From contig CALUQR010000006.1 of the NCBI GenBank assembly GCA_944322965.1, positions 38,456-102,455 of the forward strand: a stretch of DNA of 64,000 nucleotides. Reading direction: 5' to 3'. Numbering within the stretch: the stretch's first letter is position 1; every line of letters begins with the position of its first letter. Below the pieces are notes generated by a model. It was not told where the DNA came from and made no database searches. It saw only the letters and a list, made by a program, of their open reading frames with translations. Positions 19,736 through 36,753 of this stretch are shown here, one piece after another. A program made the translations under genes and the position numbers. The DNA is from Vulcanimicrobiota bacterium. Lineage in GTDB: Bacteria; Vulcanimicrobiota; Xenobia; Xenobiales; Xenobiaceae.

Positions 19736-19757
19736 TTAAGCTAATTCGGAATTAGGC
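19736..19757. repeat. Solo copy of the TAAGCTAATTCGGAATTAGG motif shared with the terminal repeats of the MITE-like element. It overlaps the stop codon of the cysteine desulfurase gene.
   Basis: taagctaattcggaat is identical at 19736 and 36830. Confidence 0.5.
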
Positions 19758-20863
19758 TAAAACGCAATACGCACGGCGCCCAACGCGTACTCCCTCTGCA
19801 GTTTCAAGGCTTTAATTACATGAGAGATCTGGAAATCGTGGGAGTCGCAGGCGGAGCCGGTGGCTACGGCTATCCCTTGGAGGTTGAGTCGCTGTTGGAT
19901 AGTCTCCCCTTCGCAGTTGGGGAAAGAAAGATTGAGCACCCCGGGCAGTTTGGGGGGGTGGCTATTGAGCTTAAAGGGCACCCCCTTCTCGCGCAGGAGT
20001 CGGAGTAGTTCGTCTTCCAAACGTTGCAGATGCAAGTTTCTTTGCTGCAGATGGCGCAAACTCTCTTCTAGGGCTCGGGCCATGCCTACGATGGCGGCTA
20101 CGTTCTCTGTACCGGCGCGCAGGTTCCGTTCTTGGGCTCCGCCGTGGAGGAGGGGCTCGATCTCAATCCCTTGGCGCAGGTAGAGGAATCCTATCCCTTT
20201 GGGCCCTTGGAACTTATGGGCGGAGGCGGAGAGGAGGTCTACTCCCAGTTGGGGGATCTGCAAGTCGAGATGCCCTACCGCTTGGACGGCGTCGGTATGG
20301 AAATAGGCGCCCGCCTGGTGGGCGCGTTGGGCCAGCTGGGGGATAGGTTGCAAACAGCCTAGCTCATTATTGGCGGTCATAATAGAGACTAAGGTGGCGT
20401 TGGGACCCAATTCCGCTTGCAGGGTCTCCGGCTGGACCCGCCCTTCCCGGTCTACGGGCAAGTAGCTGACAGGCAAGTTAAAGAAGCGCTCTAGGTACTG
20501 GGCGCAGCGCAGGACGGCGTGATGTTCTATCTGGGAGGTTAGGAGCACAGCTCCCCCCTGGGGCGCCCAGAAGTTAGGACCCCGCTCTAAGATGGTACGC
20601 TCAATAATCCCGCGCAAGGCCCAGTTATCGGCCTCCGTACCTCCGGAGGTAAAGTAGATCTCCTGGGGCAAGACCCCTAGGGCGCGGGCGATAGTGGCTC
20701 GGGCCTCTTCGATAGCCTTCTTAGCTTGACGTCCCAGGCGGTAGAGCGAGGAGGGGTTCCCGAAGCGCTCTTGGAGGTAGGGGCGCATCACTTCTAGAGC
20801 TGCGGGACTTAAGGGGGTGGTGGCGGCGTTATCTAGATAGAGTGGGGGCTCAAACTTAGCCAA
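19757..20863 (-). CDS. Class V aminotransferase / cysteine desulfurase (NifS/IscS/DndA-like). It is the last gene of the BREX-containing co-directional block.
   Basis: The PLP-lysine region SAHKFQGPKGIGFLY and the N-terminal YLDNAATTP motif. It overlaps the upstream zinc-ribbon gene by 8 bp. Confidence 0.8.
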   Translation of the reverse strand: MAKFEPPLYLDNAATTPLSPAALEVMRPYLQERFGNPSSLYRLGRQAKKAIEEARATIARALGVLPQEIYFTSGGTEADNWALRGIIERTILERGPNFWAPQGGAVLLTSQIEHHAVLRCAQYLERFFNLPVSYLPVDREGRVQPETLQAELGPNATLVSIMTANNELGCLQPIPQLAQRAHQAGAYFHTDAVQAVGHLDLQIPQLGVDLLSASAHKFQGPKGIGFLYLRQGIEIEPLLHGGAQERNLRAGTENVAAIVGMARALEESLRHLQQRNLHLQRLEDELLRLLREKGVPFKLNSHPPKLPGVLNLSFPNCEGETIQQRLNLQGIAVATGSACDSHDFQISHVIKALKLQREYALGAVRIAF

Positions 20864-21074: not shown

Positions 21075-22547
21075 TTAGAAGTTAGAGATTAGCTCTTTAG
21101 AGCTGCGGAACTGGGGTTTGAGCTCTAAGGCGGGAACCCGTTTGCCGCGGTACTCGTTATCTAAGAGCCCCAGTTGGGTGACGATAGTTTGGCGCATCTC
21201 CATAGCCCTTTCCAGACAGTAGTGGCGGAAGAGCTCCCCGGGCACTTGGTTGGCCCGGCGCACGTGGGGGAAGAGCAGCTTGAGGTAGGCGGTGGCGATC
21301 CTCTTAATAGCCTCCGTATCGCGAGTATCGGCGGTCGCAGGCACTTCCAGGATCTCGTCTACTACGGCCCGGTAGGCGGTGTCGCTGCGCAATTCGTGCA
21401 TGATGGAGCAGAAATATTCGGAGTTTAAGGCCCAACCCGAGACCTTAATATTCTCGCGGATACGGGGTATATTCCAACCCTTAATAAAGCCGTGGAAGCG
21501 CTCTATGAGGGCCGACTCTTGGAAGATGGGGGGCACCTCTTGGAACATATTGGCCTGTCCGTCCTGGTCCATAATCTCTTTGCGCAAGTTGCCGCAGAGC
21601 ACTACTCCCGCTTCCGAGCGCCCGTGGTAATTGCCCACCGTAAATTGGCCCGACTCCATATACCCTTTGAGAGCGGCGCGCATCTCGTCGACGTCGGAGA
21701 AGGCGATAGTCTGCACCTCGTCTAAGACTACGAAATCGTGGCCGGAGATGAGGCCCTCCCGTTTGGTATTCATATCGTAGAACATCTTGGCCCGCGTCAT
21801 CTTTCCGCCGCTAGAGAGCCAGCCGAAGCGACTGATCTGACCGAAGAGGTAGGATTTGCCCGTCCCTTTGGGGGCCAGCTCGATGAGGTTGAGCCTCTTC
21901 TCCACAAAGGGCAAGAGGCGGGTAAGCATAGTCAACTTCTCTTCTAAGTTGAGGTAGCCCTCGGGGTTATAGTCGATAGCCCCTAAGAGGATATCGACCC
22001 ACTCTTCTAAGCTAAAATCTTCGCGGGCCTCTTGGAAATAGTCGAGCTCCACTCGGTAGGGGCAGAAATTCTTAAAGGAGCGCAAGAGGATCTTCCCGGG
22101 GTCCCGATCTTGGGCGGGTTGGTAGCCTAGCTCGACGATCCCCCAGGCCCCGCCCTCTTTGGTGAGGTCATGGGCCACTTCGTCCCAGACGTACTGCTCG
22201 ATGAGCGTCTCCCTAAAGCCCAGGCCGAACTCGGGCAAGGCGAAATTGACTTGGCCGCGGTTAATGTCGATATTAGTCTCGATCTTAGTGAGAAAGCGCA
22301 CCTCCTTATTCTCTAAGACTACCTGGGCCTTGAGGGCCTCCCAGTCGCTGCGGCGGGGCACGTGGGTGCGCACGAACTCCCGAAACTCCTCCTTATCGAA
22401 GTTGCCCTCGCTATCTTCGAAGCGCTGTAAGAGCCAGTCGCGCATAAAGGACGGCAAGCCCAAGGAACTAAAGAAGGCGCTCTCCTTAAGGTCCTTATAG
22501 AGGGCCATCTCCTCAAAATTATCGCGCAATTTGGCAACCGTATCCAT
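21075..22547 (-). CDS. brxL: BrxL-like P-loop protein (Lon-related ATPase) of a type 4 BREX operon
   Basis: The Walker A motif ELAPKGTGKSYLFGQISRFGW and its position after pglZ. At 490 aa it is shorter than type 1 BrxL. Confidence 0.5.
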   Translation of the reverse strand: MDTVAKLRDNFEEMALYKDLKESAFFSSLGLPSFMRDWLLQRFEDSEGNFDKEEFREFVRTHVPRRSDWEALKAQVVLENKEVRFLTKIETNIDINRGQVNFALPEFGLGFRETLIEQYVWDEVAHDLTKEGGAWGIVELGYQPAQDRDPGKILLRSFKNFCPYRVELDYFQEAREDFSLEEWVDILLGAIDYNPEGYLNLEEKLTMLTRLLPFVEKRLNLIELAPKGTGKSYLFGQISRFGWLSSGGKMTRAKMFYDMNTKREGLISGHDFVVLDEVQTIAFSDVDEMRAALKGYMESGQFTVGNYHGRSEAGVVLCGNLRKEIMDQDGQANMFQEVPPIFQESALIERFHGFIKGWNIPRIRENIKVSGWALNSEYFCSIMHELRSDTAYRAVVDEILEVPATADTRDTEAIKRIATAYLKLLFPHVRRANQVPGELFRHYCLERAMEMRQTIVTQLGLLDNEYRGKRVPALELKPQFRSSKELISNF

Positions 22548-22559
22548 CTCTCTCGCTCC

Positions 22560-24935
22560 CTAAAAATCGAACTCGCTATTCTGGGTCATCCCCTTCTTCT
22601 TACTCACTTGTATCTGCAACTCTTTTTGCAAGACTCCGCCCCGGTAGAGTTCCAGGGTGTAGGCAGCGGGGCCGGGCGGTTTCTCCCAGTAGGCTCGGTA
22701 GATACTGGGTTTTTCCTCTTGCAGGGGCAGGACTTCATCGTTCCAGCGCAGCTCTAAGTCGGGGGCGTTCGTCCAGGGTACTTGCAGATGCAAGGTTATC
22801 CCCTTCTTGCGGGAGTATTCCGCGCTGGGGGTCAAGAGCTCGATAGCGGGCAGACGCTCGGGGGGTAGGCTAGCCTTAGAGCTTAAGACTAGGAGGGGGA
22901 TGACTACCTCCTCTAGGGAGGCGCCCCCATGGACTTCCACTGAGGCCGCCCGGCCGCCCTTAAAGCGCTCGTAGTCGGCTAAGACCCAGTAGCCATTCTC
23001 CCGGCTGACATTCTCTAAATTGCAATCTTCCCACTCCGAGCAGGGGCAACAGCGCCCGGAATGGCGCCCCTTCTGGGCCATCTCATAACTGGCCTCTCGA
23101 CCATAGAGCACAGCCAGACGGGAGGCCCCGTGGTCGCTAGCTAAGAGCAGGCGCTGACACTGGCCCGACTCTAAGCGGCGGGCGCAATCTTGGACCACCC
23201 GGCGCAAGAGGCTAAGTTCCGCGGGCAGGTGGGTGGCGGCCCGACTCTCTTTAGAGAAGTCGTAATCGGCGTTGCCATGTTTGAGTTTATCCAGCTCCGA
23301 CTCTTTAACTTTAGGGCCCTGCCACTCTTCGAAGAAGTCTTTATTAGTAGAGGTCAGCGTAGGCAGATTGGCTCGCAAGATAGAGACTTGGCACTTTAAA
23401 TTAAACTCCCGGCAGAGGGCGACTAAGTAGGGCAAGTACTCTACCCCTAAGGCGTCTACCCAGTAAAGGCAGCTCCCGGGCTGATCGTATTTGGCGATAG
23501 GCCCCTCCTTAGTAGAGAGGCGATTATAGAGGCGCTCTATAGCCTGTTGGCGCACGATCTCTAAAAAGTCGGCAGGGATCGAATTTAAGACTTTGGCCTC
23601 CCGGTAAGTTTGGAAGTAGGAGTCCATAAAGTCTAAGCTCCGGTCCTCTAAGGGCAACTTGTAAAAAGGGGCCGCCCCATTTAAATAGCGCCCTAAGTCG
23701 GGGTAATGCTTCTCTACCAATTGGCGCTCGCTAACCCCCAAACTCCCCTTTTGGGCTAAGTAGCGCAGCCACTCGATGCGCTCTATAGGGGTAAGGTCGC
23801 TTAAATAATTCTGGTAATCCTGCTGGCGGCGCAGCTGGGGCAGCCAGGTTTGAGCCCAGTCGGGGGTCAGCTGGTCTAAGGGCGAGCGCTTTAAAAGCTC
23901 ATAGCGCTCCCAGAAGAGCTCCTCCCGGGCGGAGGCCTGCTTAGGGGCGGATTCTTCCCAGAGGGTAGACCATAAGCGCTCCCCCAAATCTTCGGGCGTC
24001 TGGGAGGCGCGCATTACCCTCTCCAAGTAGCGTTGGGGCTGGGGATTTAAGCCGTACTCTTCCTTTAAGCCTAGCCACAATTGCCAGCGCTCTTGGATTT
24101 TGGCCTCGCCCCCTAAGGAGCTAGCCACCCGGGCTAAGCGCTCGGGCAGGGAGAGGCCGCTAGGGCGCAGCTCAGCCTCTAAACCCTTAGAGAGGGCGTC
24201 TATTTCTACTTCCCGGTGGCGCTCTAAGAGCTTCTCCCAACGCTCCGGGCTGCCCCAACCCTCTTCCCAGCGCATTAAGGGCCCTAAGCGCTCTTTAAAG
24301 ACCGCCCAGGCGGAATCTAAGGAGCGGATCTTGAGGCTAGCTTGGCTCCAGGGGATGGCGCTCTGGTAGTCCAGGCGGCGACTATCGCCCGGGCGCCACT
24401 CCTCTAGGGCGTAGAGGAGATTTTTTAAACCTTGGTAGCAATTGGAGCTAGGGGCCCAGCCCAGATCTTGCCAGCGCACGATCTCTAGCTCTAGTTGGGG
24501 GTTCCACTCCTCTAAGATATGGAGGTAAGGCTTAAAGCGCGGGTCGCGCTGGGCCGCCTCCTCCAAAAAGCGCTGCCGCCCCCGCCAGAGGAAGATCAGT
24601 TGCTGCTGTGGCTCTAAGGAGAGGCGCTCCTGGCGCTCTAAGAGCTCTTGCAGCCCCTCCCGATAGCCGCGCAGGGCGGCCCACTCCCCGCAGCCCACCA
24701 CTAAGATCTGGGCCCTAGGATTCTCCGCCAACTCCTGGCGCAGCGCCCGCCACAAGCGCTCAAAGTTGGGGATCTTGTCGGGATGGGGACAGTAGTCGGA
24801 GAGTCGCCAGGTGGTAAAACCCTCGCCAGCTAGGCTCTCGCGGGTCGCCCTCCACTCGGCCCCCACTACTAACCAGTGGGGCCGTCCCCCGCCGTAGGCG
24901 GGGGGCGCCGGTGCGCAATAAGAGTCCATCTCCAA
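22560..24935 (-). CDS. pglZ: PglZ-domain protein (alkaline-phosphatase superfamily) of BREX
   Basis: The C-terminal region carries YWVDALGVEYLPYL ... LLLASDHGASRL, the TSDHG-like PglZ signature. It is flanked by brxC and brxL. Confidence 0.6.
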   Translation of the reverse strand: MEMDSYCAPAPPAYGGGRPHWLVVGAEWRATRESLAGEGFTTWRLSDYCPHPDKIPNFERLWRALRQELAENPRAQILVVGCGEWAALRGYREGLQELLERQERLSLEPQQQLIFLWRGRQRFLEEAAQRDPRFKPYLHILEEWNPQLELEIVRWQDLGWAPSSNCYQGLKNLLYALEEWRPGDSRRLDYQSAIPWSQASLKIRSLDSAWAVFKERLGPLMRWEEGWGSPERWEKLLERHREVEIDALSKGLEAELRPSGLSLPERLARVASSLGGEAKIQERWQLWLGLKEEYGLNPQPQRYLERVMRASQTPEDLGERLWSTLWEESAPKQASAREELFWERYELLKRSPLDQLTPDWAQTWLPQLRRQQDYQNYLSDLTPIERIEWLRYLAQKGSLGVSERQLVEKHYPDLGRYLNGAAPFYKLPLEDRSLDFMDSYFQTYREAKVLNSIPADFLEIVRQQAIERLYNRLSTKEGPIAKYDQPGSCLYWVDALGVEYLPYLVALCREFNLKCQVSILRANLPTLTSTNKDFFEEWQGPKVKESELDKLKHGNADYDFSKESRAATHLPAELSLLRRVVQDCARRLESGQCQRLLLASDHGASRLAVLYGREASYEMAQKGRHSGRCCPCSEWEDCNLENVSRENGYWVLADYERFKGGRAASVEVHGGASLEEVVIPLLVLSSKASLPPERLPAIELLTPSAEYSRKKGITLHLQVPWTNAPDLELRWNDEVLPLQEEKPSIYRAYWEKPPGPAAYTLELYRGGVLQKELQIQVSKKKGMTQNSEFDF

Positions 24936-24956: not shown

Positions 24957-27900
24957 TTAAAAGGGTTTATCGATTAGGGCGATCCCCAATTCCACATCGT
25001 CTTTAATGACATCCAGTAAGAGCGTTTTGAGCACCTCCGGGGGCAGCTCGTCTAAGCGGCGGCTGAGGCGGGGCAGCCCCGTCTCCTTATATTCCGCTTC
25101 GGCCAGCTCCTTAATGGCGGGCAACATCTGGGGTTCGGTCCAGTCGTAGACCGGCGCCTTCATCTTCTTAGCTAAGCTCTCGCAGAAGCTATGGGAGGAG
25201 GGCACGAAACTATGGTAATGGCCCGCCACCCGCTGCCGGAACTGGAGTTTAGCCCGGGGCAGGTCGTTCATTAAGCCAAAGAGCGAGCTCTTCTCCAGCC
25301 ACTCCAAGATGCGCTTGGCCTCCTCTTCCCCTAAGGAGGATTGGGAGTCGTTTAAAACTCGGAAGGCGGATTCCGAGATCTCGCGCTCCTCTTGGGGCAC
25401 TAAGTAGCGGATGGGGATGAGGTTTTTTTGCGACCATTCCCGAGGATTAGGGGAGCCGCTCTTCTCTTGCCACAGGCGTTGGATGCGCCCTTGCAAGCTC
25501 TTGCGCCGCTGGGAGGCGGCCAATTTTAAAACCTGCTTTTGGGCGGAATCGAGGGAGCCGCTCGAGATATTGAGGTGGCTAGCCCGCAACTGGGCGAAGA
25601 CCTCGCCCACCGAGTCGTCGTCTAAGCCCTGGAGCTGGGTCTTATAGAGGCTCTTAAAGGAGTCTAACTCGTTGCCAAAGAGCTCCCCTAACTTCTGACC
25701 CTCCTCCTGCAAAGCGCCCAGCCACTGCTTGCGCACTAGGTCGGAGTTATAATCCCGGTAACCCTTACATAAGCGGTCTAAGCGATCGACTAAGCCCGGG
25801 CTGAGGGCCCCGCTCTCTAAGCTCGTTAAGGTGGAGAAGGGCAAGCTGAGCTCGGAGAGGCGCTTACTGAGCTCGTTCATAGCCTCCTGGAGCCCACCCT
25901 TGGGACCTTGCCCTAAGAGATTCGTCAGACGCCAGAGGAGCTCTAACTCATCCCCTACCCCGGAGATCGTATCTTGGCCTATCTCCTTAGTCCAGGAGTA
26001 GGCCATGTCCGTCGAGAAGGCCGATTGCAGGCGCTCCTGGAGCTTTTTAGGCTCCCAACCCAATTGGGCCGTCAGCTTATTTAAGCGCCCCTCCTGGAAT
26101 TTATCTAAGAAGTCGCGCAAAGCTTGCAGGGCCTTATCCTTACCCACCGCCTCCCGCAGACGGCTAGCCCACTCCTGGCCCCGCTCTTGGTAGAGCCGGC
26201 CCAACTCTTGGGCTTTGGGGCGGGCGGAGGCCGGGCCCTCCTTAGAGATCTCCCAGAAGAGTTGCAAACCTTGGACCACCTGGGGATCGTCTAAGCGCTC
26301 CCAGACCATCCATAAGGGCCAGACCCGCTCCTTTAAGGCCGCCCCTAAACGCTTCTGCCAGCTGGAGAAGTCGGACTCGTTGAGCTTAAAACTCCACACA
26401 TAAGAGGCCAACTTCTTAAAGCTGACCATCTCCGGCGACTCTCGCACCAGGGTGACCTTATTCTTATCGTTCCCGCGCACGAGGTTATTGAGCTGGTCCT
26501 GGAGCTTCCCGATATCCATAACGCCCCCGGCCCCCGCCCGATCGGCGTAACTATATTTCGGGTCCTGGTACTCCTTTAAGAGGAAGCCTAAAAGGAAGCC
26601 GTAGAGGTTATTGGGCCTAAAGCAGGCCTCCTTAACTAGATAATTCCAGACCTCTTGCCAGCCGATGTGGCCGTTAGAGCCTAGATTTTTCTCCATCAGC
26701 TCTTCTAAATGGGCCTTCAATTGGGAGATGGGCAGAACCTTAAGTTGGGGGACCTGCCAATAATTGGGGACGCTCCACACCTCCCCTAAGCCCAGGCGCT
26801 TTTCGATCTCCGCCATCTCTCCCTTAGGCTGGGCGGGGGCCTCTAAGCCGGCCCGAATGAAGCGGGAGGGGCTCAAGTTGAGCCAGCTATCTTTGAGCCG
26901 CTCATTTAAATCGAATAAGGGGTAAGAGGATGAGGCGCTCAAGAGGCGCTTTAGCTCTTCGCAGAGGGTATTTAAGGTAGGATACTTCTGCCCCGGTTTC
27001 TTTAACTTAGAGCCATAGAGGCGGAAGGGCCCCTCCGCCAATTTGGAGAGCCAAACCTGCTCGAGGAGACTCTCCGCCTTCTTGCGACTCTCCTCCGCCT
27101 GGCTGCGGTCCTTGCTACTATAGAGCGAGGCGTAGGCCATGCCCTCAATATAGTCGCCAAAATTCTTGGGCGAGAGCAAGGTGGAGGTGAGATCTACTAA
27201 GACGGTCTGGCCCCCGCCCTCCTGTTCCCAGTCGACCTTATCCAAAAGATCCTCCAATTGGCGGCTCTCCCCTTCGTCTTTAGCTACTACTAACCCCCAC
27301 TTGAGCGGACTCTTGCGCTCTAAGAGGCGCTTCAACTGGCGACCAAAGTCGGAGACGGTCAAGAGTTCAGGAGTATCTAAACGCTGGGCCAGGGCCTTCC
27401 CTAAAGCCTCGCCGCTCATCTCTAAGAGGTGGTGCTCTTTAAGATACTTACTGGCTAAGTTGGAGGTAGTAATACTCTTAGCCAGGCGCTCTTTGATCTT
27501 CTCTAACTCGATCTCGTCGCCCACCCCTAAGGCCACCACGTAGCAGTAATCGTTACTAGAGATAGACCGATCCTTAGCGATAACGTGTTTCTCGCGCAGC
27601 TCCTCTAAGCTCTTAGCTACGCAATCGTTGGCTAGACCCTCCCCCACGAAGGCCCACTCTAAGTGTTCCTGGGTGGTCTCTAAGAGCTTCACTTGGTTAT
27701 TGCAGGCCCTATTGACGGCCAACATAATTAAGAGAGCTTGCAAGACCCGCCCCGCCTCCGGACTCAGGTGGCGAGCGTAGCGCTTATAAGTACCCAAGAT
27801 GCGGTTGGCGTCTGAGGTCAGGTCCTCTTTTTTATATTCGGTAAAGTACTGCCAAAGCAGGTCCACGGTCAGTAAGGGGCGGTCCCCGTAGGGGCCGTAG

Positions 27901-29156
27901 GTGTGGATATACCACTGGAAGGCGTAACTTTTGGGCTCCTCTAAGCGCAAGAAGTCAAATAAGCTGCGCTGGTTCGATTGGAAGGTAGTAGCTACAAACT
28001 TTAAGACCAGGGCCGCCAAGGGGTGGAGGGGCAAGATTTTAAATAGGGTCTCATGATCTTCTAGACGGGACTCAGCCCCTATAGCCTCTACCACCTTCTG
28101 CAGGCGCTGGCGCAGGATCTTGATATCTTCATTAAACTCTGAGGCCTTCTCAGGGAGAAGGTGCAAGGCGTTGGCGATTAAGTGGAAGGCCACATTTTCG
28201 GGCATATCGATGCCCACCCGTTCGAAGCGGTCTTGGATGGGATTGCCCTGGCTCTCTTCGCTAGCCGCGTGGTGGGTGACGATAGTCAGGAAGAAGTTGC
28301 CCTCTTGGGCCAGGGCGGCGATCTTCTGTAAGCTATCTAAGCTCTTGGCGTTGCGATTCATGTAGGAGGAGAATTCGTCCCACAGAAAGACCAGCTGGAT
28401 CCCATTGCGGGCGATGACCTCTCGCATCCAGGCCGTCAGACTGTCGACGCTGGGGGCCATAAAGATCTCCTCCTCTTGGCGCAAGAGCTCCACCAGGTTG
28501 CGCACTAAGGAACCCGTATCCTCCCCTTGGCGCAGATCATCTAAGATTTCTGCGGCCGTACTCTGGCTAAAGAGGTTGCACCAGGGAGACTGGCTCAGAT
28601 GGCGCTCTACGATAGACGCGTAGGGGGGATCGCTCAACTTTTCGATCAGGCGCTCTCGGCTGGTAGCATTCCCTAAGTAGGAGCAGCCCGCCTCTCGGAG
28701 GGCCTGGGAGATAGACTCCTCAAAGGCCAGACAGAGGTTAGTCGTATCGCCAATTTCACCCGAGCCGTAGCGGAAGGCGATCACCATCTTCTGGCGGCTC
28801 TTAAGGCCTAAGAACTTTTGTAAGAGGTCCTTACGCCCCTCCTTTAACTCCTGGAAGCGATCCCAATACTCTTGGACTTCCTGGGCGGGCCGCTCTAAGA
28901 TGCGGCGCAGGGCTAAAAGGCACTGGGACTTACCCGTCCCGTAGGGACCGTAGATCCACAGCCCCTTAGTGGAGGAGCCATTTAAGATCTGCTCGGCCTT
29001 CTCCAAGAGCTTAATGAAGGTGGGGTGGGGGTAAGTATTCTTCCACTCCGCCCCTCTCTTAATAGCCCCCAGGTCGATACAGGGGAAATAGTTCTTTTGT
29101 AGCTGGAAGTATTGGCTGTAAGTCTCCGTCTCCGGAGCGGCGAGCACGGCGGGCAT
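24957..29156 (-). CDS. brxC: BrxC/PglY-like large P-loop NTPase
   Basis: The N-terminal Walker A motif LWIYGPYGTGKSQCLLAL. The 1399-aa size and the position between brxP and pglZ also fit. Confidence 0.55.
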   Translation of the reverse strand: MPAVLAAPETETYSQYFQLQKNYFPCIDLGAIKRGAEWKNTYPHPTFIKLLEKAEQILNGSSTKGLWIYGPYGTGKSQCLLALRRILERPAQEVQEYWDRFQELKEGRKDLLQKFLGLKSRQKMVIAFRYGSGEIGDTTNLCLAFEESISQALREAGCSYLGNATSRERLIEKLSDPPYASIVERHLSQSPWCNLFSQSTAAEILDDLRQGEDTGSLVRNLVELLRQEEEIFMAPSVDSLTAWMREVIARNGIQLVFLWDEFSSYMNRNAKSLDSLQKIAALAQEGNFFLTIVTHHAASEESQGNPIQDRFERVGIDMPENVAFHLIANALHLLPEKASEFNEDIKILRQRLQKVVEAIGAESRLEDHETLFKILPLHPLAALVLKFVATTFQSNQRSLFDFLRLEEPKSYAFQWYIHTYGPYGDRPLLTVDLLWQYFTEYKKEDLTSDANRILGTYKRYARHLSPEAGRVLQALLIMLAVNRACNNQVKLLETTQEHLEWAFVGEGLANDCVAKSLEELREKHVIAKDRSISSNDYCYVVALGVGDEIELEKIKERLAKSITTSNLASKYLKEHHLLEMSGEALGKALAQRLDTPELLTVSDFGRQLKRLLERKSPLKWGLVVAKDEGESRQLEDLLDKVDWEQEGGGQTVLVDLTSTLLSPKNFGDYIEGMAYASLYSSKDRSQAEESRKKAESLLEQVWLSKLAEGPFRLYGSKLKKPGQKYPTLNTLCEELKRLLSASSSYPLFDLNERLKDSWLNLSPSRFIRAGLEAPAQPKGEMAEIEKRLGLGEVWSVPNYWQVPQLKVLPISQLKAHLEELMEKNLGSNGHIGWQEVWNYLVKEACFRPNNLYGFLLGFLLKEYQDPKYSYADRAGAGGVMDIGKLQDQLNNLVRGNDKNKVTLVRESPEMVSFKKLASYVWSFKLNESDFSSWQKRLGAALKERVWPLWMVWERLDDPQVVQGLQLFWEISKEGPASARPKAQELGRLYQERGQEWASRLREAVGKDKALQALRDFLDKFQEGRLNKLTAQLGWEPKKLQERLQSAFSTDMAYSWTKEIGQDTISGVGDELELLWRLTNLLGQGPKGGLQEAMNELSKRLSELSLPFSTLTSLESGALSPGLVDRLDRLCKGYRDYNSDLVRKQWLGALQEEGQKLGELFGNELDSFKSLYKTQLQGLDDDSVGEVFAQLRASHLNISSGSLDSAQKQVLKLAASQRRKSLQGRIQRLWQEKSGSPNPREWSQKNLIPIRYLVPQEEREISESAFRVLNDSQSSLGEEEAKRILEWLEKSSLFGLMNDLPRAKLQFRQRVAGHYHSFVPSSHSFCESLAKKMKAPVYDWTEPQMLPAIKELAEAEYKETGLPRLSRRLDELPPEVLKTLLLDVIKDDVELGIALIDKPF

Positions 29157-29162: not shown

Positions 29163-31592
29163 CTATACCTCCTGGATGAGCTCTAGGACCTGAGCCGAGG
29201 ACTGGGGTCCCAAATTGATAGAGTCGAGGTCATGTGTGAAGCTGACCTGAATATATTCGGGGTAACGGGCGTTTAATCCCAGTAAGGGGGCTTTAAGTTG
29301 AGCGGGAGTCGCCCCCCACAAGCGCAAGGGACTGACCGCCTGGCGCTCGGCGGTAGGATCGGCCAACTGCCCCAAATTGAAGGCCCGATACTCGCCCCCC
29401 ATAGCCTCCGCAAATTTAAATAGGCTGTAGAGTAAGACTAAAGGCGACCCCCACTTAGGAGCGGTGCGCACCAAATACTCCTCTTTGCCCTTCTTCTCTA
29501 CCCTGCCCCAATTGAGAACCGTCCCTAAGGGGGTGGCAGCTAGGCGTTTGAAAGCCTTAACGATAGAGGCCGCATCCTTATCGCTAATCCCCAGCTCTTT
29601 TAGAGCCCCCACCAACTCTTCCCGCGCATAACGGTGTTTCAGATCCATAAAGTTGGTGTACCAGGCCATTTGGGGGTTAGTGTAGACTAAATTAGTCAAA
29701 ATCAACCCCAAAGCGTTCTCTGAATCCCAGCCCAAACGAGAGATAAATTCCGCAAATTCAGTGAAGGTGTTGCGACCATTTAATCCAGCATCTCTCAAAA
29801 AACGCCGGAAGAAATCAAACATATTGGAACCTAGGCTATGTTCCGTATAGAACCTTTGCTTAAGTGCAAAGAATGAGCGCAACCATTCCGTCTTTGGTGC
29901 ATGGTCAGCAAAAGTGTTGAGGCTGCTTTTTACCATTTTATGAGCTCCTGTTCCAGGTGGGAAATGCAAGGATTTATAGGCCAGACAATTGCCTGGAATA
30001 TCATAACAATCATGACATTGACGACAGTTCTCTATACGAACTTCGCCCTCATGAAAACTTATGGCCCCATAAGGGCAAGTAATTTCACAAGTTTGACATG
30101 CAATACAATGAGCCGTTTTGCGTAAAACAGCCCGTAAGGAAGTAATAAATTTAGGAGATGATTTGACAGTGTGCGGGTCAACCGTAATTTTAAAACCCAA
30201 TGCAGTCTTCTCAAATTGTACTTCAAACGTCTCTTTGGGAGTCATCAGTGTCAGCGAATTGCCAAGTAAAAAGACGTCTCCAATAGTCTTAAACCATTGT
30301 CGCCAGTCGGATAGTGGCTTAACTAACTCAAAGACTAGAGTTCCATTTCGCTCACATTCTATGATGTGTGACTTGTTTTTGGCTAGTGATCGCCCATTAC
30401 GACGCAATTGCCAGCCACCGCCAACCAAATAGCTTAGTTTTAGCTTCTTTTGTTCTTCAACCGTAGTATCTGCATCTTTTTCGGGGACATCATAGCTATT
30501 ACGCACTATCTTGGCGAAACGTTCGACCTTATCAGTATAGTTAGCCCAACGGAAATAATTCGCCAGGTTACCTGTCATGGGGCACAATAAACACCCAGCT
30601 CTAGAGTTACCCTTCTTATAGCCAGCATTAATCGTTAAGTTTCTAGAGAATATGTAAAGCCAAATTTCGGCTGAATTCCATTCTAAGAGAGGATTGAAGC
30701 TGTATTGCCCCTTTTGTTTTTTGCTGTAATTGTCGTAAGTGTATTCTGAGCGGCTTAGGCTTTCTGCACGTCGTACGCCCACAAAGTCCAATCCCTTATA
30801 GTTGGGCTTACCGCTCAAACGGCGAAGAGTAAGTGTCTGCGGCGTACTCTTATGCACGCAACAACACCAGCGCGCCACCTTGGCAGGAGGAGCGAACTTA
30901 CGCCAAGATGCTTCAGGAGTACATTGGGCTTTTGTTCGTTCAAAAGATATGCCCTCATTACGACATTTACGCTCATCTTGACGAACAGCCGCCAAGGTGT
31001 CAGGAAATTCCATTCCTGTATCGGCGAAGAGAACAACAAAACTATTGGCAGGTAACGCTGATTTTACAAGGTCTAACAGGACGATACTGTCCTTGCCTCC
31101 CGAATAAGCCACATGGAATATATCGACTATTGATTGGTATCTTTCATACGCATCCAATATTTTTTGAATCGTATCCGCAACTAAGACTTCTAAAAGTTGA
31201 GAGTTAGCAGCGAGCATTGCCCCCATATCAATAGGTTTTAGAATTTGTTCCTTAAATACGCAGGAACTCATTTCAGCGTCAGAGAACAAGACGCCCTGCC
31301 CAGAGCTCGTTTCCCTACTTTCATCCCAATTGACATCAAAGAAAGTCACCGTTGGTTTTTCGTAAAGATTACCCCCACGCAGCTGAGCAATCAGTTGCCC
31401 CCGATAGTAATACTTGCTCCCTTCTGCCCACATATAAGGAACTGATTCATTAGAATCATATTTCCAACGAGAATTAAAACCCAAGAGATCCATTTCTTGG
31501 GCCCATACTGGTCTAGGCTCCTTAGAGAAGGCTAACGGCAAATCACGCAAGATGATTCCGCCGGTAGCGGGATCGTAGGCATAAGAATACAT
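29163..31592 (-). CDS. brxP: BrxP-like protein: a PAPS-reductase/PP-loop domain (SGGKDS) plus a 4Fe-4S ferredoxin-type motif (CIACQTCEITCP) and a C-terminal extension
   Basis: The PP-loop HVAYSGGKDSIVLLDLV and the CxxCxxCxxxCP cluster motif. DndC-like chemistry, in the type 4 BREX gene order brxP-brxC-pglZ-brxL. Confidence 0.65.
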   Translation of the reverse strand: MYSYAYDPATGGIILRDLPLAFSKEPRPVWAQEMDLLGFNSRWKYDSNESVPYMWAEGSKYYYRGQLIAQLRGGNLYEKPTVTFFDVNWDESRETSSGQGVLFSDAEMSSCVFKEQILKPIDMGAMLAANSQLLEVLVADTIQKILDAYERYQSIVDIFHVAYSGGKDSIVLLDLVKSALPANSFVVLFADTGMEFPDTLAAVRQDERKCRNEGISFERTKAQCTPEASWRKFAPPAKVARWCCCVHKSTPQTLTLRRLSGKPNYKGLDFVGVRRAESLSRSEYTYDNYSKKQKGQYSFNPLLEWNSAEIWLYIFSRNLTINAGYKKGNSRAGCLLCPMTGNLANYFRWANYTDKVERFAKIVRNSYDVPEKDADTTVEEQKKLKLSYLVGGGWQLRRNGRSLAKNKSHIIECERNGTLVFELVKPLSDWRQWFKTIGDVFLLGNSLTLMTPKETFEVQFEKTALGFKITVDPHTVKSSPKFITSLRAVLRKTAHCIACQTCEITCPYGAISFHEGEVRIENCRQCHDCYDIPGNCLAYKSLHFPPGTGAHKMVKSSLNTFADHAPKTEWLRSFFALKQRFYTEHSLGSNMFDFFRRFLRDAGLNGRNTFTEFAEFISRLGWDSENALGLILTNLVYTNPQMAWYTNFMDLKHRYAREELVGALKELGISDKDAASIVKAFKRLAATPLGTVLNWGRVEKKGKEEYLVRTAPKWGSPLVLLYSLFKFAEAMGGEYRAFNLGQLADPTAERQAVSPLRLWGATPAQLKAPLLGLNARYPEYIQVSFTHDLDSINLGPQSSAQVLELIQEV

Positions 31593-31638
31593 GGGACCTG
31601 GTACACATGACGAGGCATGCTTAATATATCATCAAGTT

Positions 31639-34600
31639 TTAGCTGCTGATTTTCCTCAGCAAACTAAGCCCGCGCTCTTCGCTCAGTCTCCCCAAGTATC
31701 CCCCCTCAATTAGATACTCTGAAATAGCCTCCATAGTTGGCCTAACTTTAGCTCGCTTCAAAACGACAACTAGCGCATCTTCGTAATCTATTTGGCACTC
31801 TTTCCGCATCAGTAAGCCAAGAATTTTTACTGTCCATTGCCTATGAGAAGGCAAAAGTAATTTAAAACGTTTACTAAATCGATAACAGTAGGAGCTCAAT
31901 AGATACTCATTCCAGGTATAACCGCAATAAGGTAAAGATAAGAATAAACTATTGGGAATATCTCCCACAGATAAGAATTCCGGCAAAATTTCATCTAGAA
32001 TACGATCAATTTCATCAACCTGAAAATCTACCATATTGGGCTGCACAAACTCTTTAGCATCAATGCGAACTAAGTATTGATAGCCATAGTCGAAGGCCAA
32101 TTGTCTAACCGCGCCCGGCTTTTCAGGAGCATTCAGAGCTTCACACCCCAGATCGTTTAGTTCATCCAAACTAACGATTTTCTCTCCCAAATCCTTACAC
32201 AACTGGCGCATCATATCCATACCGGAGATAGTATCCTGACCAAAACGATTAATAAAAGCGCTACTCCCTTTGCGTTGGTACTTGTCGGCCAAATACTTGA
32301 AGTAGAGCCCCTTGATCCAGGCCATTTCGGTCAGGCGCGAGTCGTTTAAGTAGTGCCACTCTTCTAAGGGTAAGGAGCTTAAAGTGAAGCTACCCTCCTT
32401 ATCTAAACCCTCTTCAATTATCCTTACCATCCGCTCCACTTCCTCTGGCGGCAGTTCGAAATAATTTAAGTTGAGATAACTGGCGCAGCGGCTGGCGGTG
32501 CTAGTCTCATTTAAAACTAACTCCTCGCCCTCGCCGATGGCTAATTTAATATCCGCTTCCCCTAAGTAGGGCAGGCGCTCCTGCAGTTGGGGTAAGGTCA
32601 ATAAACTCTCCCCGCCCCAGTGGGCCCGCACCTCCCCTAAGAGTAAGCGCTCTAAATTCTTTTCCTGAGGCTCTAAAGTATAAAAATACTCCTTCTGGCC
32701 CTTAGTAGTCTTAGTAATTAACCGACCAGGCAAGTTGAGGCGCTCTAAGAGACTGGGCCAAAGCTCTACCTGGCGCAAGTTCAACTCCTCTAAATTGTGG
32801 CGCGCCCCTAAACGCTCTAAGTTAAAGACCCTCCAATCGCGCTGGCGAGCCTCCTCCAAGATCTTCTCTAACCTCTTCTCTAACTGCGGGTAATAAAAAT
32901 AATAAGAGACGCCCTCCGCACTCTCTAAAGGTAAACCGCAACGCTCTAAAAGGTCCCTATAACCCTCCTCACTCAAAGCCAAAAGGGCGTCCCGCTGCGC
33001 GTGGCCACCATAGTTAGCGCGCACCTTGTACAAAAACTTCTTATAACCCAAACGGTCGCCCATCAAAATGCCCCCGCTCTGCTCCAAAGCCACCTGACGC
33101 AAAGCCTCGCCCAAAGGACCCCAAGAGACCGCCCTACACCTAACCGGCTCTAACTTCTCTCTTACCAGAGGCCCTTTCTCGGGGGCCGGTTGTGACTCTA
33201 ACCTATGTACTGCATCGGGGGCCAGAGGCCCATTCGTCGGCCCAGGTTGCACCTCTAACTCATTTACTGCCTCAGACACAGGTTCCGGCTCTAACCTAGG
33301 GTCTACCTCGGCTGCAGGCTCAATCTCTACCTCTTCCGCAGGCCCAGGCTCGGACTCCACCTCAGCCCCAACCTCAGCCTCTCCCGCAGGCACAACCTCA
33401 ACCGCGGGGGCCGGCTCTAGCTCCACCTCCTCTGGGGTTAGGTAGATAGTTACTAACTGGGGATCTAAATTGAGCTCCCTAAAGAGGCGCTGGAAGGTCT
33501 GTAAGCTCCAGCCCCGCTCCTCTTTGAGCCGCCACCAGTAGCCGCCAATCTCAAAGACGCCCTCCACCTCGCCCTCGGAACCCTTCTCCTCTAAACGAGC
33601 GCCCATAGCCCTCAAAGCCCCCTCCAAACGCTGAGGACCACAACTAAAATCTAACTTGCGCAATAAAGACAACTGCCACGAGATCCAACCCGCAGACTCT
33701 AACTCTACCCTGCCCCCCTCGCCCCGCCACTCCCAAGCCGCCGGCTCATACCCATAAAAAGCCTGCGCCCCCTCCCCCAGGGCCAGGGCCAAAGGCCCTT
33801 TCGTCGGGGCCGGTTTTGCCCCTAACTCAGATACTGCCTCGGGGGCAGGCTCCACTCTAACCTCAGTTACCGGAGACGCCTTCGTCGGGGCCGGTTGCGC
33901 CCCTAACTCCGACTCAGGCTCGGGCTCTTCCGCGGGCGCTACTTCCGCCTCCACCTCAGCATCTTCCGCGGGCCATACTTCCGACTCGGGCGCAGGCTCA
34001 GTCTCAACCTCAGGCGCTACCTCGGACACCGGATCCGACTCTGCCTCAGGCGCCACCTCAGCCTCCACCTCTTCCGCGAGCCCTACCTCGGGTTCTATCT
34101 CTCCTACAGTTGTATCTGCAATATAATCCGCAATCTGAGAGGCGGGGTAGAGGTAAATTTTTACCTGGCGCAAGTCGATCCCTAAATGCTTAAAGAGGGG
34201 GCGGAAAGCCTTGATACTCCACTTATAATCTTCCCGGCCTACAAAGACGCGCTCCCCAATTACTACGTGGGGCTCTGAGGAGGCCTCTCTCATAAAATCG
34301 ATCCTCCACTTTAAGGGGATCTCTACCCGCTCTAAAAGCTTAACTAAGCGCCAAGGATCAAATTCCTCTAATAGCTGACTAACCAGAGAAACCTGCCAAG
34401 CGCTCCAGCTGGGCTGGGAGAGCTCCTCCCCTAAATGGAACTTACCCTCACACTCCCAAGCGATAGGGAGATAACCCTCAAAATCGGTTACCAAATTGAA
34501 AGGGGTCAAATAGAAGGGCTGTCTATCCGCCGCCGCAACTTCCGCTGGGGGTGTCTCTATGCTTGCATCTACAACACTATCCACAGGCGGACTACTCTCT

Positions 34601-36753
34601 ACCGGGGCTGCGGGCGTAGGCGCGGGCTGGGGCAGGTGGTTAGAGATGGCGATCCGCTCAAAAGAGATCCCTAAATAACGGGCGCAGGCTTTAATGGCGT
34701 CCAAAACGCTAGCCTGGTCTTCATATAAGAGCAAATAGAGATCGGAATCTATGGCCACATACTTATGGCCTGGATAGCGACCCTCCATCTCCGCTGAGGA
34801 TCTAGTCAAGGCCAAATGGCAACGGTTATAGAGATCCTCTAAAGGACGCTCCCCTAAAGAGGTATGGACTAATAACCAACCCACAAAGCGATGTAAAAGC
34901 TCGGCCCAGCTGGGAGGGGTAATCTCTATCCCCTCCTCCCCAATCTGCAACCAACGCGGACCGCTAGGCGGAGCCGCTTTAACCTCCCCAACCCCAGGCT
35001 CTTCCTCTGGACTCAGGCCCGGAGCTAAATGGATCTTTAACCCCTCCTCTAAGAGCCAAGCCCCCTCCTGGGGAGCAGCCTCCCTAGGCGCATAATAAAG
35101 TTGGGGGCGCAACCCCAAAGCCCGACAACACTTACTGAGCGTATCTACTACTCGCTGGGGCTCGCTCTCTAAGAGCAGGTAAGCGCAGTCGGCTAAGACG
35201 ATGTAGGCCTTACCCGGATGATCCTTAGCCATCCCGGCGGCGCTGGCGGTCACCACTATCCCCCAGTCGGCCTCGTGCCTATAGAGCGCGGTCACATTGC
35301 TAGCTAACTTCTTCTCATAGAGCCAGCGCACAAAATTGACATAGAGCTGAGGCCAAGTGGGCGGAGAGACCGTCACCCTATCAAAACCTATCCCCAAAGC
35401 GGTAGGACGCAGACTCCCCAAATCAGCCTTGGGTCTCGCCGTAGTTGTAGGCTCAACCTTTTCCGGAGCTTTAATCTCCTCCATAACCCCCTGAGAACCG
35501 CCCACCAGGCCCATAATTTCCGCCAACTCCCGCTCCGGATCGCCCCCCGCCCCCGGACTAGGCTGGACCTGGGGAAGCGACCGCCCGGGAGGGGGCGCCT
35601 GAGCGGGCGGCGCCGACTGGATGGGCGGAGCGGACTGCGTTGGCAAAGTAGACCGAGCGGGAGGGGTAGGCCGGGCTGGCGGAACGGACTGGGTCTTAGG
35701 CTGGGCCGCAGGGGCTACGGAAATGCCGCCCCCTAAGCTAATCATGGTCTGACTGAGATCTAAATTGGAGACGTCTACCACCCCCTGCCCTGCCTTAGCA
35801 GTAGTAGCAGTAGAATTAGCCGCGTTGGCGGTAGCAATAGCGGCGGGTAGGGTCTTAGCCTTAGGCGCTGGCTGAGGGGCGGCCGCTTCCAAGCAGTAGA
35901 AGCTCAAGTCGCCCGGGTTCTTCCCTAAGGCGGTACTCAGAGCGCGCAAGTTGGCCAAGATCTGCTGCGGCTGGTTGTAAATGGGTAAGTATAAGCCCGG
36001 ACGGACCCCTAAGACGGGCGTGCGGTAAGGGGCTTTAATATACAACTCTACCTTACTGCCCATTAAGAAGCCATTTTGCTGGAGACAGAGGACGCAGGCC
36101 TCCGGGGTGAGTTTGGACATCAAAATTAAGAGGGCGATGCGGTAAGCCTCCGACCACCTCTCCTGAGGGACGGGATAATAAAAATTCTTAAAGCGCACGT
36201 AAAGCGGCGCCTTACTAGCCAACTGGGAGGCCGACTGCAGACTATTGATCCCAATCGGCCACAAGCTATCCCCACTGCTAGGAGGCCTAGCCTCTAAAAG
36301 CGCCCCCTTATCCAACTTAGCCCGCAAAGAGGCCCAACTATCCACCTTCTCCGGACTAGGCTTAACCGCCCTAGAGGTTGCAGTCGTCGCCGCAGGGGAC
36401 GCCGCAGGAGTCGCCGGCACGGAGGTGGGCTGCACCTGCGCAGGCGCAGGCTGAGGCTCTGGACGCTGATCGACTACCGGAGGGACTATAACTAGATCCT
36501 CCCCCAAACGCCAACCGGCCCGCAAAGTCTGGTACTGGGTATCGTAGACCTGCTTTAAGCCGCTAGCCAAAAGCAAGGACTCCAAAGCCTCCGCCTCTTG
36601 AATGTAAGTAACCCGCATTAGAGGCTGACACTCCCGTGCCTGATGCTGGACCTTAGCCAGATGGACCGCTAACCTCGCGCACAACTCCCGCCCCAAAGCC
36701 GCTAACCGCTCCAACTTCGCCAACTCCGCCCCCGAAATCGCCCTGCGCTCCAT
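31639..36753 (-). CDS. Giant (1704 aa) hypothetical protein with internally duplicated ~110-aa modules of two types, separated by acidic E/P/A/V-rich linkers, and a non-repetitive ~650-aa C-terminal region. It lies 46 bp upstream of brxP and is co-directional with it.
   Basis: Repeated blocks: PPxWxxLxxxFVxWL...G+xY+...YLLL...LG, and W..SL..L...D..........F.IG....WS...F..LF..L..D.QV.IYL.P. No recognisable catalytic motif. Confidence 0.6.
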   Translation of the reverse strand: MERRAISGAELAKLERLAALGRELCARLAVHLAKVQHQARECQPLMRVTYIQEAEALESLLLASGLKQVYDTQYQTLRAGWRLGEDLVIVPPVVDQRPEPQPAPAQVQPTSVPATPAASPAATTATSRAVKPSPEKVDSWASLRAKLDKGALLEARPPSSGDSLWPIGINSLQSASQLASKAPLYVRFKNFYYPVPQERWSEAYRIALLILMSKLTPEACVLCLQQNGFLMGSKVELYIKAPYRTPVLGVRPGLYLPIYNQPQQILANLRALSTALGKNPGDLSFYCLEAAAPQPAPKAKTLPAAIATANAANSTATTAKAGQGVVDVSNLDLSQTMISLGGGISVAPAAQPKTQSVPPARPTPPARSTLPTQSAPPIQSAPPAQAPPPGRSLPQVQPSPGAGGDPERELAEIMGLVGGSQGVMEEIKAPEKVEPTTTARPKADLGSLRPTALGIGFDRVTVSPPTWPQLYVNFVRWLYEKKLASNVTALYRHEADWGIVVTASAAGMAKDHPGKAYIVLADCAYLLLESEPQRVVDTLSKCCRALGLRPQLYYAPREAAPQEGAWLLEEGLKIHLAPGLSPEEEPGVGEVKAAPPSGPRWLQIGEEGIEITPPSWAELLHRFVGWLLVHTSLGERPLEDLYNRCHLALTRSSAEMEGRYPGHKYVAIDSDLYLLLYEDQASVLDAIKACARYLGISFERIAISNHLPQPAPTPAAPVESSPPVDSVVDASIETPPAEVAAADRQPFYLTPFNLVTDFEGYLPIAWECEGKFHLGEELSQPSWSAWQVSLVSQLLEEFDPWRLVKLLERVEIPLKWRIDFMREASSEPHVVIGERVFVGREDYKWSIKAFRPLFKHLGIDLRQVKIYLYPASQIADYIADTTVGEIEPEVGLAEEVEAEVAPEAESDPVSEVAPEVETEPAPESEVWPAEDAEVEAEVAPAEEPEPESELGAQPAPTKASPVTEVRVEPAPEAVSELGAKPAPTKGPLALALGEGAQAFYGYEPAAWEWRGEGGRVELESAGWISWQLSLLRKLDFSCGPQRLEGALRAMGARLEEKGSEGEVEGVFEIGGYWWRLKEERGWSLQTFQRLFRELNLDPQLVTIYLTPEEVELEPAPAVEVVPAGEAEVGAEVESEPGPAEEVEIEPAAEVDPRLEPEPVSEAVNELEVQPGPTNGPLAPDAVHRLESQPAPEKGPLVREKLEPVRCRAVSWGPLGEALRQVALEQSGGILMGDRLGYKKFLYKVRANYGGHAQRDALLALSEEGYRDLLERCGLPLESAEGVSYYFYYPQLEKRLEKILEEARQRDWRVFNLERLGARHNLEELNLRQVELWPSLLERLNLPGRLITKTTKGQKEYFYTLEPQEKNLERLLLGEVRAHWGGESLLTLPQLQERLPYLGEADIKLAIGEGEELVLNETSTASRCASYLNLNYFELPPEEVERMVRIIEEGLDKEGSFTLSSLPLEEWHYLNDSRLTEMAWIKGLYFKYLADKYQRKGSSAFINRFGQDTISGMDMMRQLCKDLGEKIVSLDELNDLGCEALNAPEKPGAVRQLAFDYGYQYLVRIDAKEFVQPNMVDFQVDEIDRILDEILPEFLSVGDIPNSLFLSLPYCGYTWNEYLLSSYCYRFSKRFKLLLPSHRQWTVKILGLLMRKECQIDYEDALVVVLKRAKVRPTMEAISEYLIEGGYLGRLSEERGLSLLRKISS

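Follow-up and report, generated by a model that had tools for sequence, protein, structure and literature searches.

Two papers of 2026 describe type 4 bacteriophage exclusion (BREX) as a DNA-phosphorothioation system (PMC12914056; PMC12839542). This was shown only recently (PMC12914056), and the system is still defined as brxP-brxC-pglZ-brxL, to which a cysteine desulfurase has been proposed as an addition (PMC12839542). BrxP acts as a fusion of SspD and SspB, and BrxC is a homologue of SspC (PMC12914056; PMC12839542). One of the papers counts five type 4 components, with a cysteine desulfurase as a frequent sixth, and gives the DUF4007 part of BrxP a BrxA-like role (PMC12839542). In a heterologous host that lacked the remaining operon genes, BrxP and BrxC (plus McrA) from Bacteroides salyersiae reproduced the native phosphorothioate (PT) pattern and dinucleotide proportions; PT stayed intact when an "unknown" operon gene of this species was deleted, and only a small fraction of sites, 0.2-17%, carries PT (PMC12914056). 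Here, we analyzed a 64,000-nt stretch of DNA from a Vulcanimicrobiota bacterium (the window, whose coordinates are used throughout) with an operon of this kind. Its first gene, at 31639..36753 (-), encodes a protein of 1704 amino acids (aa), and we refer to both gene and protein as X. A gene of the X family stands directly before brxP in about 97% of the type 4 BREX operons of bacteria. Judged by the searchable text of PMC12914056 and PMC12839542, X is a conserved, previously undescribed part of a known system; leaving aside the gene-neighborhood supplement of PMC12839542, the text of neither paper describes the family. A further paper, on an Antarctic cyanobacterium, mentions BrxP and has no relation to the window locus.

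As judged from sequence matches, the window operon is a type 4 BREX operon. BrxP is present where the PglX methyltransferase would be (PADLOC, Pfam), no methyltransferase open reading frame (ORF) lies between 19757 and 36753, and BrxC/PglY, a BREX-4-type PglZ and BrxL stand together in one operon. The window BrxP, a phosphorothioation enzyme of the PAPS-reductase type, has an Fe-S region and a BrxP-specific C-terminal part, and its ATG at 31592 follows the X stop codon after 46 nt on the same strand. Directly after brxL, also on the same strand, comes a cysteine desulfurase gene (19757-20863, -), whose product is likely the sulfur donor of the system. With this window protein as the query, no cysteine desulfurase was detected in the 80 genome loci described below, whose downstream flanks mostly end inside brxL.

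The X family and its co-occurrence with brxP

The family of X was reached only by an exhaustive phmmer search. With aa 1185-1704 as the query against 1.84 billion cluster representatives, 991 proteins were found at E<=1e-3, of which 445 also passed E<=1e-10; many representatives matched the window core at E 1e-20 to 1e-34, over query residues ~186-507. The shared domain is nearly always C-terminal, in proteins of 321-1582 aa whose N-termini differ. A word-indexed homology search with the whole of X returned only 12 near-identical proteins, with the low-complexity linkers saturating the candidates, and such a search gave a single protein for the C-terminal region and a single one for the family alignment. 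When 48 family members were scanned with Pfam, PADLOC and NCBIfam, no model covered the shared region, and the N-termini of some of them matched Sigma70_r4, RNA_pol_A_CTD, HHH_5, the PcrA/UvrD Tudor domain or WG repeats. A tblastn search of one family member against plasmids gave no match.

The co-occurrence of the family with brxP was assessed in both directions. In the forward test, one genome per species was scanned with the family motif, which yielded 80 loci; their hosts were very diverse bacteria and one Methanoregula. In 76 of these loci brxP lies immediately downstream of the X relative on the same strand, and the other 4 stop at contig edges. The gap between the two genes is mostly -4 to +9 nt, a 4-nt overlap being frequent, and every locus that was long enough (58/58) has the gene order X-BrxP-BrxC-PglZ-BrxL. 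In the opposite direction, BrxP similarity alone (44-49% identity to the window BrxP) served to pick 80 metagenome loci, of which 76 had 1 kb or more of DNA upstream of brxP and were taken as informative; a family member stands immediately upstream of brxP in 74 of them. When both directions are pooled, the adjacency is found in 150 of 152 informative independent loci. Of the two exceptions, locus L135 (415-1677) has DndB (PF14072, E 3e-31) upstream, overlapping the start of brxP by 4 nt, and locus L090 (1897-3213) has a DnaB-like helicase (PF00772 and PF03796) directly upstream. Additionally, a distant type 4 locus of an archaeon (L164), on the Methanosphaera plasmid pNP174 (NZ_CP118754.1, 9001-18723) and with a BrxP that is 25% identical, lacks the X family gene. 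This may be why X was never made part of the four-gene definition of type 4. The upstream genes of L164 encode a helix-turn-helix (HTH) regulator, an ImmA/IrrE peptidase and the product of a small ORF, and a gene for a DUF262 protein follows downstream. A B. salyersiae-like brxP-mcrA-brxC order, sought to identify the published "unknown" gene, was absent among the fetched loci.

A preliminary description of this DNA had taken X for an accessory part of the BREX operon that had not been described before, such as a sensor or scaffold, and had named co-occurrence with brxP across genomes as a check. The co-occurrence holds in both directions, and the counts of 76/80 and 74/76 loci, together with the non-enzymatic folds reported below, strongly support that view. 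The component is not confined to "this BREX variant", as had been thought, but is near-universal in the main bacterial BrxP clade. The suggestion that X replaces PglX is unsupported because BrxP is the modification enzyme and X has no methyltransferase fold: no methyltransferase match was obtained for X in Pfam, PADLOC or NCBIfam, and no Rossmann-type match was obtained for the modeled parts (aa 585-715 and 1185-1704). The idea of a specificity component is not favored, for reasons given in the last section.

Predicted folds of the core and of the N-terminal modules

X as a whole has zero matches among Pfam, PADLOC and NCBIfam models and PDB sequences; therefore, it carries no ATPase, nuclease or methyltransferase signature. 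PDB sequence searches with X, with the core profile and with the module profile returned noise only. An AlphaFold model of the core (aa 1185-1704, family alignment), with a mean predicted local distance difference test score of 83.9, consists of six to seven consecutive helix-helix-helix-strand-strand units. Foldseek matched this model only to winged-helix and tandem-winged-helix proteins, namely UFL1 (E 2e-5), TFIIIC tauB/tau138, SelB, ESCRT-II, MarR and Z-alpha, and no enzyme fold was among the matches. The likeness to the tandem winged-helix scaffolds (UFL1, TFIIIC tau138, the SelB C-terminus and ESCRT-II) is architectural only, with template modeling scores of 0.1-0.2 over the whole model, and their sequences and biology are unrelated to X. 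Since such arrays bind proteins, RNA or DNA, these matches leave the ligand of X unfixed. The winged-helix array has a net charge of -13 in the window, of -3 to -29 in 10 of 11 tabulated relatives and of +14 in the remaining one; because the array is acidic, protein binding is as plausible as DNA binding for the core.

Eight columns of the family alignment (A3) are invariant (G1228, R1563, F1577, D1583, P1608, W1614, S1627 and G1646), and the family motif in this alignment is FPxCGxxWNxYLLESYCxRFS...NSxNxG. The most conserved motif seems to lie on a helix (model residues 432-441) and on the next loop, between two strands, of one winged-helix unit, as read from the secondary-structure line. In the window allele the motif is degenerate: it reads WNEYLLSSYCYRFS (LLSSYC) and lacks NSxNxG. 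Of the invariant residues, it keeps R, F, D, P, W, S and G. The allele of L082/P0005 retains NSQNIG. With its five modules, long acidic linkers and degenerate core motif, the window protein is an extreme member of the family.

Upstream of the core, self-BLAST aligned aa 450-548 with 599-696 (31% identity, E 1e-12), aa 761-870 with 1002-1107 (33% identity, E 2e-11) and the acidic linkers 894-988 with 1108-1196 (48% identity, E 8e-18). A third, weaker A-type copy lies at aa ~160-290, and all five copies (A0, A1, A2, B1 and B2) can be aligned as a single module type. The second acidic linker (aa 1108-1210) shows a weak 24-nt tandem periodicity. Thus, much of what the preliminary description had read from the letters stands: the ~100-aa modules in multiple copies (E 1e-12 and 2e-11), the acidic linkers (48% identical to each other, net charges -28 and -19), the 46 bp that separate the end of the gene from brxP in the same direction (verified from stop to ATG), and the lack of Walker, nuclease or methyltransferase motifs, to which no enzymatic model match in Pfam, PADLOC or NCBIfam corresponds. 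Its unique C-terminus of ~650 aa has to be revised, as the non-repetitive part is ~490-520 aa long (~1190-1704) and is itself, structurally, a winged-helix repeat.

Direct phmmer searches with single window modules found almost nothing in the N-termini of the family, and an iterated profile was required. This profile detects the same module, of ~125 aa, near the N-termini of many members of the family, at most three times in one protein. A second profile, from which all window sequences were left out, matches the window protein at E 2e-12 on A0, A1, A2 and B1 (aa 175-287 in A0, 458-482 in A1 and 846-873 in B1). At least one copy is present in 92 of 289 non-redundant family proteins, the five of the window being the most seen, and ~13% of the members have essentially no N-terminal extension.

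In fold, the modeled X module resembles the SeqA C-terminal domain (PF03925; PDB 3fmt, 3sk7) and the eukaryotic SLED domain (PDB 2mem). Two weak signals at the level of the sequence agree with this. A comparison of the module profile by hhalign with Escherichia coli SeqA was colinear (P 0.006) and placed the conserved ETNxSA on the ITNTNT segment of SeqA, which we take to be the loop that contacts the hemimethylated base pair. The Pfam SeqA model (PF03925) matched one of 48 family modules, below threshold (E 0.014), and left the window protein unmatched. Therefore, a SeqA/SLED fold for the family module is reasonably supported, and membership in the Pfam SeqA family is not; according to its model, the X module has the SeqA C-terminal fold but falls outside the sequence family. 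Alpha-CTD-like and sigma region-4-like domains also occur in the variable N-terminal parts, at times beside a SeqA-like module; alpha-CTD was counted in 5 members, sigma region 4 in 9 and the PcrA/UvrD Tudor domain in 1. Four proteins (P0051, P0127, P0118 and P0116) carry two or three tandem RNA-polymerase alpha-CTD-like domains and a sigma-70 region-4-like domain at the N-terminus, and in P0118 these domains occur together with a SeqA-like module.

Population mosaicism, the low-GC cassette and the surroundings of X

Twelve natural variants of X, from metagenomes and one metagenome-assembled genome, are 87-100% identical, range from 1304 to 1762 aa and are all intact. They carry 0, 1 or 2 B modules, gained or lost in frame, and the N-terminal ~95 aa are 97-100% conserved in all variants covering that region. 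For the last ~260 aa of X, these variants show three forms with pairwise identities of 33-57%, and 7 of the 9 possible combinations of B-module number and C-terminal form were seen. Because the ORF is intact in 12 variants and the module changes are in frame, X is not a fusion of pseudogenised fragments, which the preliminary description had named as a finding that would refute its view.

The C-terminal forms of X belong to a larger swapped block. Compared with the DNA of L082, the window is 99.2% identical up to 32429, has no detectable similarity between 32429 and 29555, and is 99.4% identical beyond; against L083, the breakpoints are at 32183 and 30089. The replaced block of 2.1-2.9 kb takes in the end of X (180-265 aa), the spacer and the start of BrxP (500-680 aa), and it occurs as three alleles, while the remaining BrxP, BrxC, PglZ and BrxL are 98-100% identical across the cassette variants. 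Its GC content is 0.37-0.50 (29500-32500) compared with ~0.58 in the flanks. The low-GC patch that X had been said to share with brxP at its 3' end is therefore real, and it is a recombined cassette. As an observation in this species, the cassette is firm.

Across 120 complete loci, X is the fastest-evolving product of the operon, with a mean p-distance of 0.57-0.65 compared with 0.31-0.47 for parts of BrxP and 0.43 for BrxC. In the same loci the C-terminal part of X follows the operon at large (rho 0.78-0.84). A decoupled history is seen for the alpha+beta and Fe-S region in the middle of BrxP, at profile positions 350-560, with rho 0.23-0.28 to everything except the BrxP C-terminus; this region is a candidate specificity module of BrxP. 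Since the correlations are operon-wide, the cassette is not taken as proof of X-BrxP contact or of shared specificity.

The features of X and of the operon are collected in Table 1.

Table 1. Coordinates of the features of X and of the BREX operon in the window. SeqA-C-like denotes a predicted likeness to the fold of the SeqA C-terminal domain.
Feature	Position	Strand	Extent	Remarks
Whole gene X	31639..36753	-	1704 aa + stop	ATG start; ORF list and translation
N-terminal part	36469..36753	-	~95 aa	Non-repetitive; helical look by eye; no family match
Module A0	35884..36273	-	aa ~161-290	Most divergent SeqA-C-like module; aligns with the other modules
Pro/Ala/Ser/Thr-rich linker	35419..35883	-	aa 291-445	From composition; probably disordered
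Module A1	35059..35418	-	aa ~446-565	SeqA-C-like; self-BLAST vs A2 E 1e-12
Module A2	34639..34962	-	aa ~598-705	SeqA-C-like; the copy that was modeled
Module B1	34138..34518	-	aa ~746-872	B subtype of the same module; self-BLAST vs B2 E 2e-11; copy number varies, missing from some natural variants
Acidic Glu/Pro/Ala/Val linker	33784..34137	-	aa 873-990	Net charge -28
Module B2	33433..33783	-	aa ~991-1107	Missing from several natural variants
Second acidic linker	33124..33432	-	aa 1108-1210	Net charge -19
Family-defining C-terminal core	31642..33123	-	aa ~1211-1704	Predicted 6-7 tandem winged-helix/HTH units
Low-GC swapped cassette	29555..32429	-	Last ~265 aa of X, spacer, first ~680 aa of BrxP	blastn vs L082 and L083
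brxP	29163..31592	-	809 aa	PADLOC BrxP 3e-215; Pfam PAPS_reduct 1e-27
brxC/pglY	24957..29156	-	1399 aa	PADLOC BrxC 1.5e-167; weaker SspC matches
pglZ, BREX-4 type	22560..24935	-	791 aa	NCBIfam NF033445 (BREX_PglZ_4) 1.4e-94; PADLOC PglZ 4e-78
brxL	21075..22547	-	490 aa	Pfam BrxL_ATPase 2e-113 and BrxL_N; PADLOC 5e-217
Cysteine desulfurase, DndA/SspA/NifS-like	19757..20863	-		PADLOC SspA 1.5e-119, DndA 6e-119; NCBIfam

The intergenic region upstream of X (36835-37182) contains three 28-nt direct repeats, 21 nt apart (37113-37182), and 37-nt inverted arms (36835-36871 and 37133-37169) that are 84% complementary and enclose 261 nt. These repeats, with AATTCG/GAATTAC-type words, are either regulatory or like a miniature inverted-repeat transposable element, and an Rfam scan near the X gene gave nothing relevant. 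Beyond this region lie two paralogous genes (37257-39020 and 39208-40929, +) whose secreted-type products combine RTX calcium-binding repeats with a Peptidase_M91 effector domain; they are divergent from the BREX operon, and the same neighbors are found in L001 and L082. On the other side, a pair of giant genes (5018-12436 and 12542-19690, +) for a polyketide synthase like that of polyunsaturated fatty acids or of heterocyst glycolipids converges on the operon. The first of them encodes a ketosynthase, an acyltransferase, four acyl carrier proteins, a ketoreductase and a dehydratase, in this order, and the second has two ketoacyl-synthase matches, one weak acyltransferase match and three FabA-like dehydratase matches. 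Four tRNA genes are clustered within 400 nt at 52052-52450 (-).

Possible roles of X

Overall, we propose that X is a non-enzymatic DNA-targeting adaptor or reader subunit of type 4 (phosphorothioate) BREX, a reading that we hold to be somewhat likelier true than false and whose mechanism we infer. The model builds on a near-universal gene, a winged-helix core, variable module strings and the lack of an enzymatic fold. The N-terminal forms of the family comprise five SeqA-C-like modules on disordered Pro/Ala- and Glu-rich linkers in the window and one to three modules in relatives. The winged-helix core would dock X onto the BrxP/BrxC machinery; the N-terminal modules would tether it multivalently to DNA and, by analogy with SeqA, might read the modification state or the density of sites on the DNA molecule. 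SeqA itself reads the hemimethylated state of GATC. X would act in self/non-self discrimination and restriction, or in control of the PT level, rather than in PT chemistry. Its fast evolution and mosaic population structure are compatible with exposure to phage counter-selection.

The layout of X, with a non-repeat N-terminal part, flexible linkers and DNA-binding-type domains, recalls the oligomerization domain, linker and reader of SeqA. However, one X chain holds five tandem modules compared with one per SeqA subunit, and X stands in a phosphorothioate defense operon, whereas the setting of SeqA is Dam methylation and the control of replication. In work on BREX in E. coli, SeqA was a microscopy reporter only (PMC6326788).

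Several points weigh against this proposal. The SeqA likeness is at the level of the fold (5-8% identity), and A2 is the sole module that was modeled (aa 585-715). The TN motif is lost in all five window modules, which have acidic or other residues instead (LLYEDQ, LLESEP, PIYNQP, VGREDY and RLKEER at this position); therefore, the window modules may not bind DNA as SeqA does. A protein-binding scaffold would account for the acidic winged-helix array no less well than a DNA binder. Both the DNA binding and the role of the family members are predicted, and the docking of X on BrxP is deduced from gene adjacency and the shared cassette. A mirror-tree-style test found no special coupling between the X C-terminus and BrxP beyond the operon-wide trend. 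Moreover, the "unknown" gene or the "brxR" of B. salyersiae (PMC12914056) might correspond to the X family.

Among known proteins, X works most like an accessory DNA-binding component of the BrxA or DndB type, and it is a member of neither family. BrxA (DUF1819, type 1 BREX) and DUF4007/SspB are small DNA-binding components with HTH and winged-helix folds. Like BrxA, X is encoded by the first gene of its operon and has HTH/winged-helix units and no enzymatic domain; it differs in having 6-7 winged-helix units and long module strings and in being 3-8 times larger. X has no Pfam or PADLOC match to BrxA or DUF4007, and hhalign of the core against BrxP, including its DUF4007-type part, gave E 0.29. 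That X is a duplicated BrxA/DUF4007 array was rejected, as this profile-profile comparison shows no relation. By analogy with BrxA, X is probably dispensable for modification; methylation was unaffected by brxA deletion in E. coli (PMC6326788). BrxR, which consists of a winged HTH, a WYL domain and a dimerization domain, differs in size and architecture, and no WYL or related Pfam match was found in X. DndB, a DNA-binding and non-essential partner of the PT synthesis machine, occupies the same position as X relative to the PAPS-reductase gene. However, it belongs to a DGQHR/ParB-like fold family, has ~350-420 aa without module arrays and shows no sequence similarity to X; PF14072 has no match in X, while the DndB of L135 matches at 3e-31.

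This likeness in position leads to a different explanation, which we regard as doubtful, namely that X governs the operon in the manner of DndB, as a DNA-binding regulator outside the restriction complex that limits or patterns phosphorothioation, represses the operon or does both. In dnd clusters, dndB is the gene directly upstream of dndC, and DndB plays this regulatory part. The place of X upstream of the PAPS-reductase gene mirrors dndB-dndC, and in L135 DndB takes the place of X with its 4-nt overlap, an in situ non-homologous replacement. PT marks only 0.2-17% of sites, so a governor is plausible; BrxP and BrxC are enough for PT synthesis (PMC12914056), and the modeled parts of X are predicted to be HTH/winged-helix-type and SeqA-like modules only. 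However, the DndB replacement is a single case, the other exception being a DnaB-like helicase, and X has no sequence or profile similarity to DndB in Pfam or PADLOC. In addition, its size, its module strings, its translational coupling to brxP and its very fast mosaic evolution would be unusual for an operon repressor. The cassette, in turn, might point to a specificity subunit whose winged-helix units choose the DNA motif together with BrxP and whose allele swaps change specificity, like the target-recognition domains of Type I restriction-modification systems and PglX. The end of X and the start of BrxP are indeed replaced together, as three alleles (18-45% and 30-70% aa identity in protein identity profiles) within flanks of 98-100% identity; the alleles reassort with module number, and the most conserved motif appears on a helix and the following loop of one winged-helix unit. 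We nevertheless consider this improbable. BrxP and BrxC (plus McrA) of B. salyersiae gave native PT dinucleotide proportions without the rest of the operon (PMC12914056), and the variable cassette holds the motif that is most conserved family-wide, the opposite of a target-recognition domain. The decoupled history belongs to the middle of BrxP (rho 0.23-0.28) and not to the X C-terminus, which tracks the operon (rho 0.78-0.84), and physical adjacency alone may explain the co-replacement.

The N-termini, rather than the core, are at the center of an even less probable scenario, in which X is an integrated-decoy sensor whose N-terminal modules bait phage host-takeover proteins and whose binding of them switches the BREX complex on. 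These N-termini are combinatorial arrays of domains homologous or similar in fold to host replication and transcription factors that phages target, the window modules are acidic and have lost the TN motif (the DNA contact by analogy with SeqA), and X evolves faster than any other operon product, with a module number that varies in the population. However, the argument is purely analogical, all of these domains are also ordinary DNA-binding domains, and ~13% of the members have essentially no N-terminal extension. Finally, X could be an unrelated hitchhiker, as the preliminary description had allowed, or a fusion of decayed fragments, in either case without a role in BREX. Its unusual composition and the absence of database matches speak for this, and nothing more does. 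A random distribution is contradicted by the adjacency to brxP in 150 of 152 loci, often with a 4-nt start/stop overlap; the frames are intact in all natural variants, and the fold predictions are confident. We give this possibility practically no credence.

Returning to the adaptor or reader model, we also considered a more specific and rather unlikely form of it, in which the X family is the missing reader of PT-BREX. The SeqA-like modules, the conserved winged-helix unit or both would sense the PT, hemi-PT or unmodified state and the density of sites, licensing PglZ/BrxL-dependent restriction. If this were true, such a reader would account for the discrimination of self from phage by a system in which only a small fraction of sites is marked. 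The five-module, linker-rich form of the window would then be a multivalent ruler, and the population mosaicism would have been left behind by an arms race with inhibitors made by phages.

Whatever its precise role, the main bacterial type 4 clade has a further near-universal gene, X, which is the first and the fastest-evolving of the operon. Because no Pfam, NCBIfam or PADLOC model covers X, detection tools and reconstitution experiments may omit a core part of the system. The reading of the modification state is a step in BREX that nobody understands, and, owing to its reader/scaffold domains, one of them related to SeqA in fold, X is an obvious candidate for coupling modification reading to the exclusion of phage DNA. 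For testing the role of X, nature already provides genetic material in the three-allele cassette and in the variants with 0, 1 or 2 B modules.

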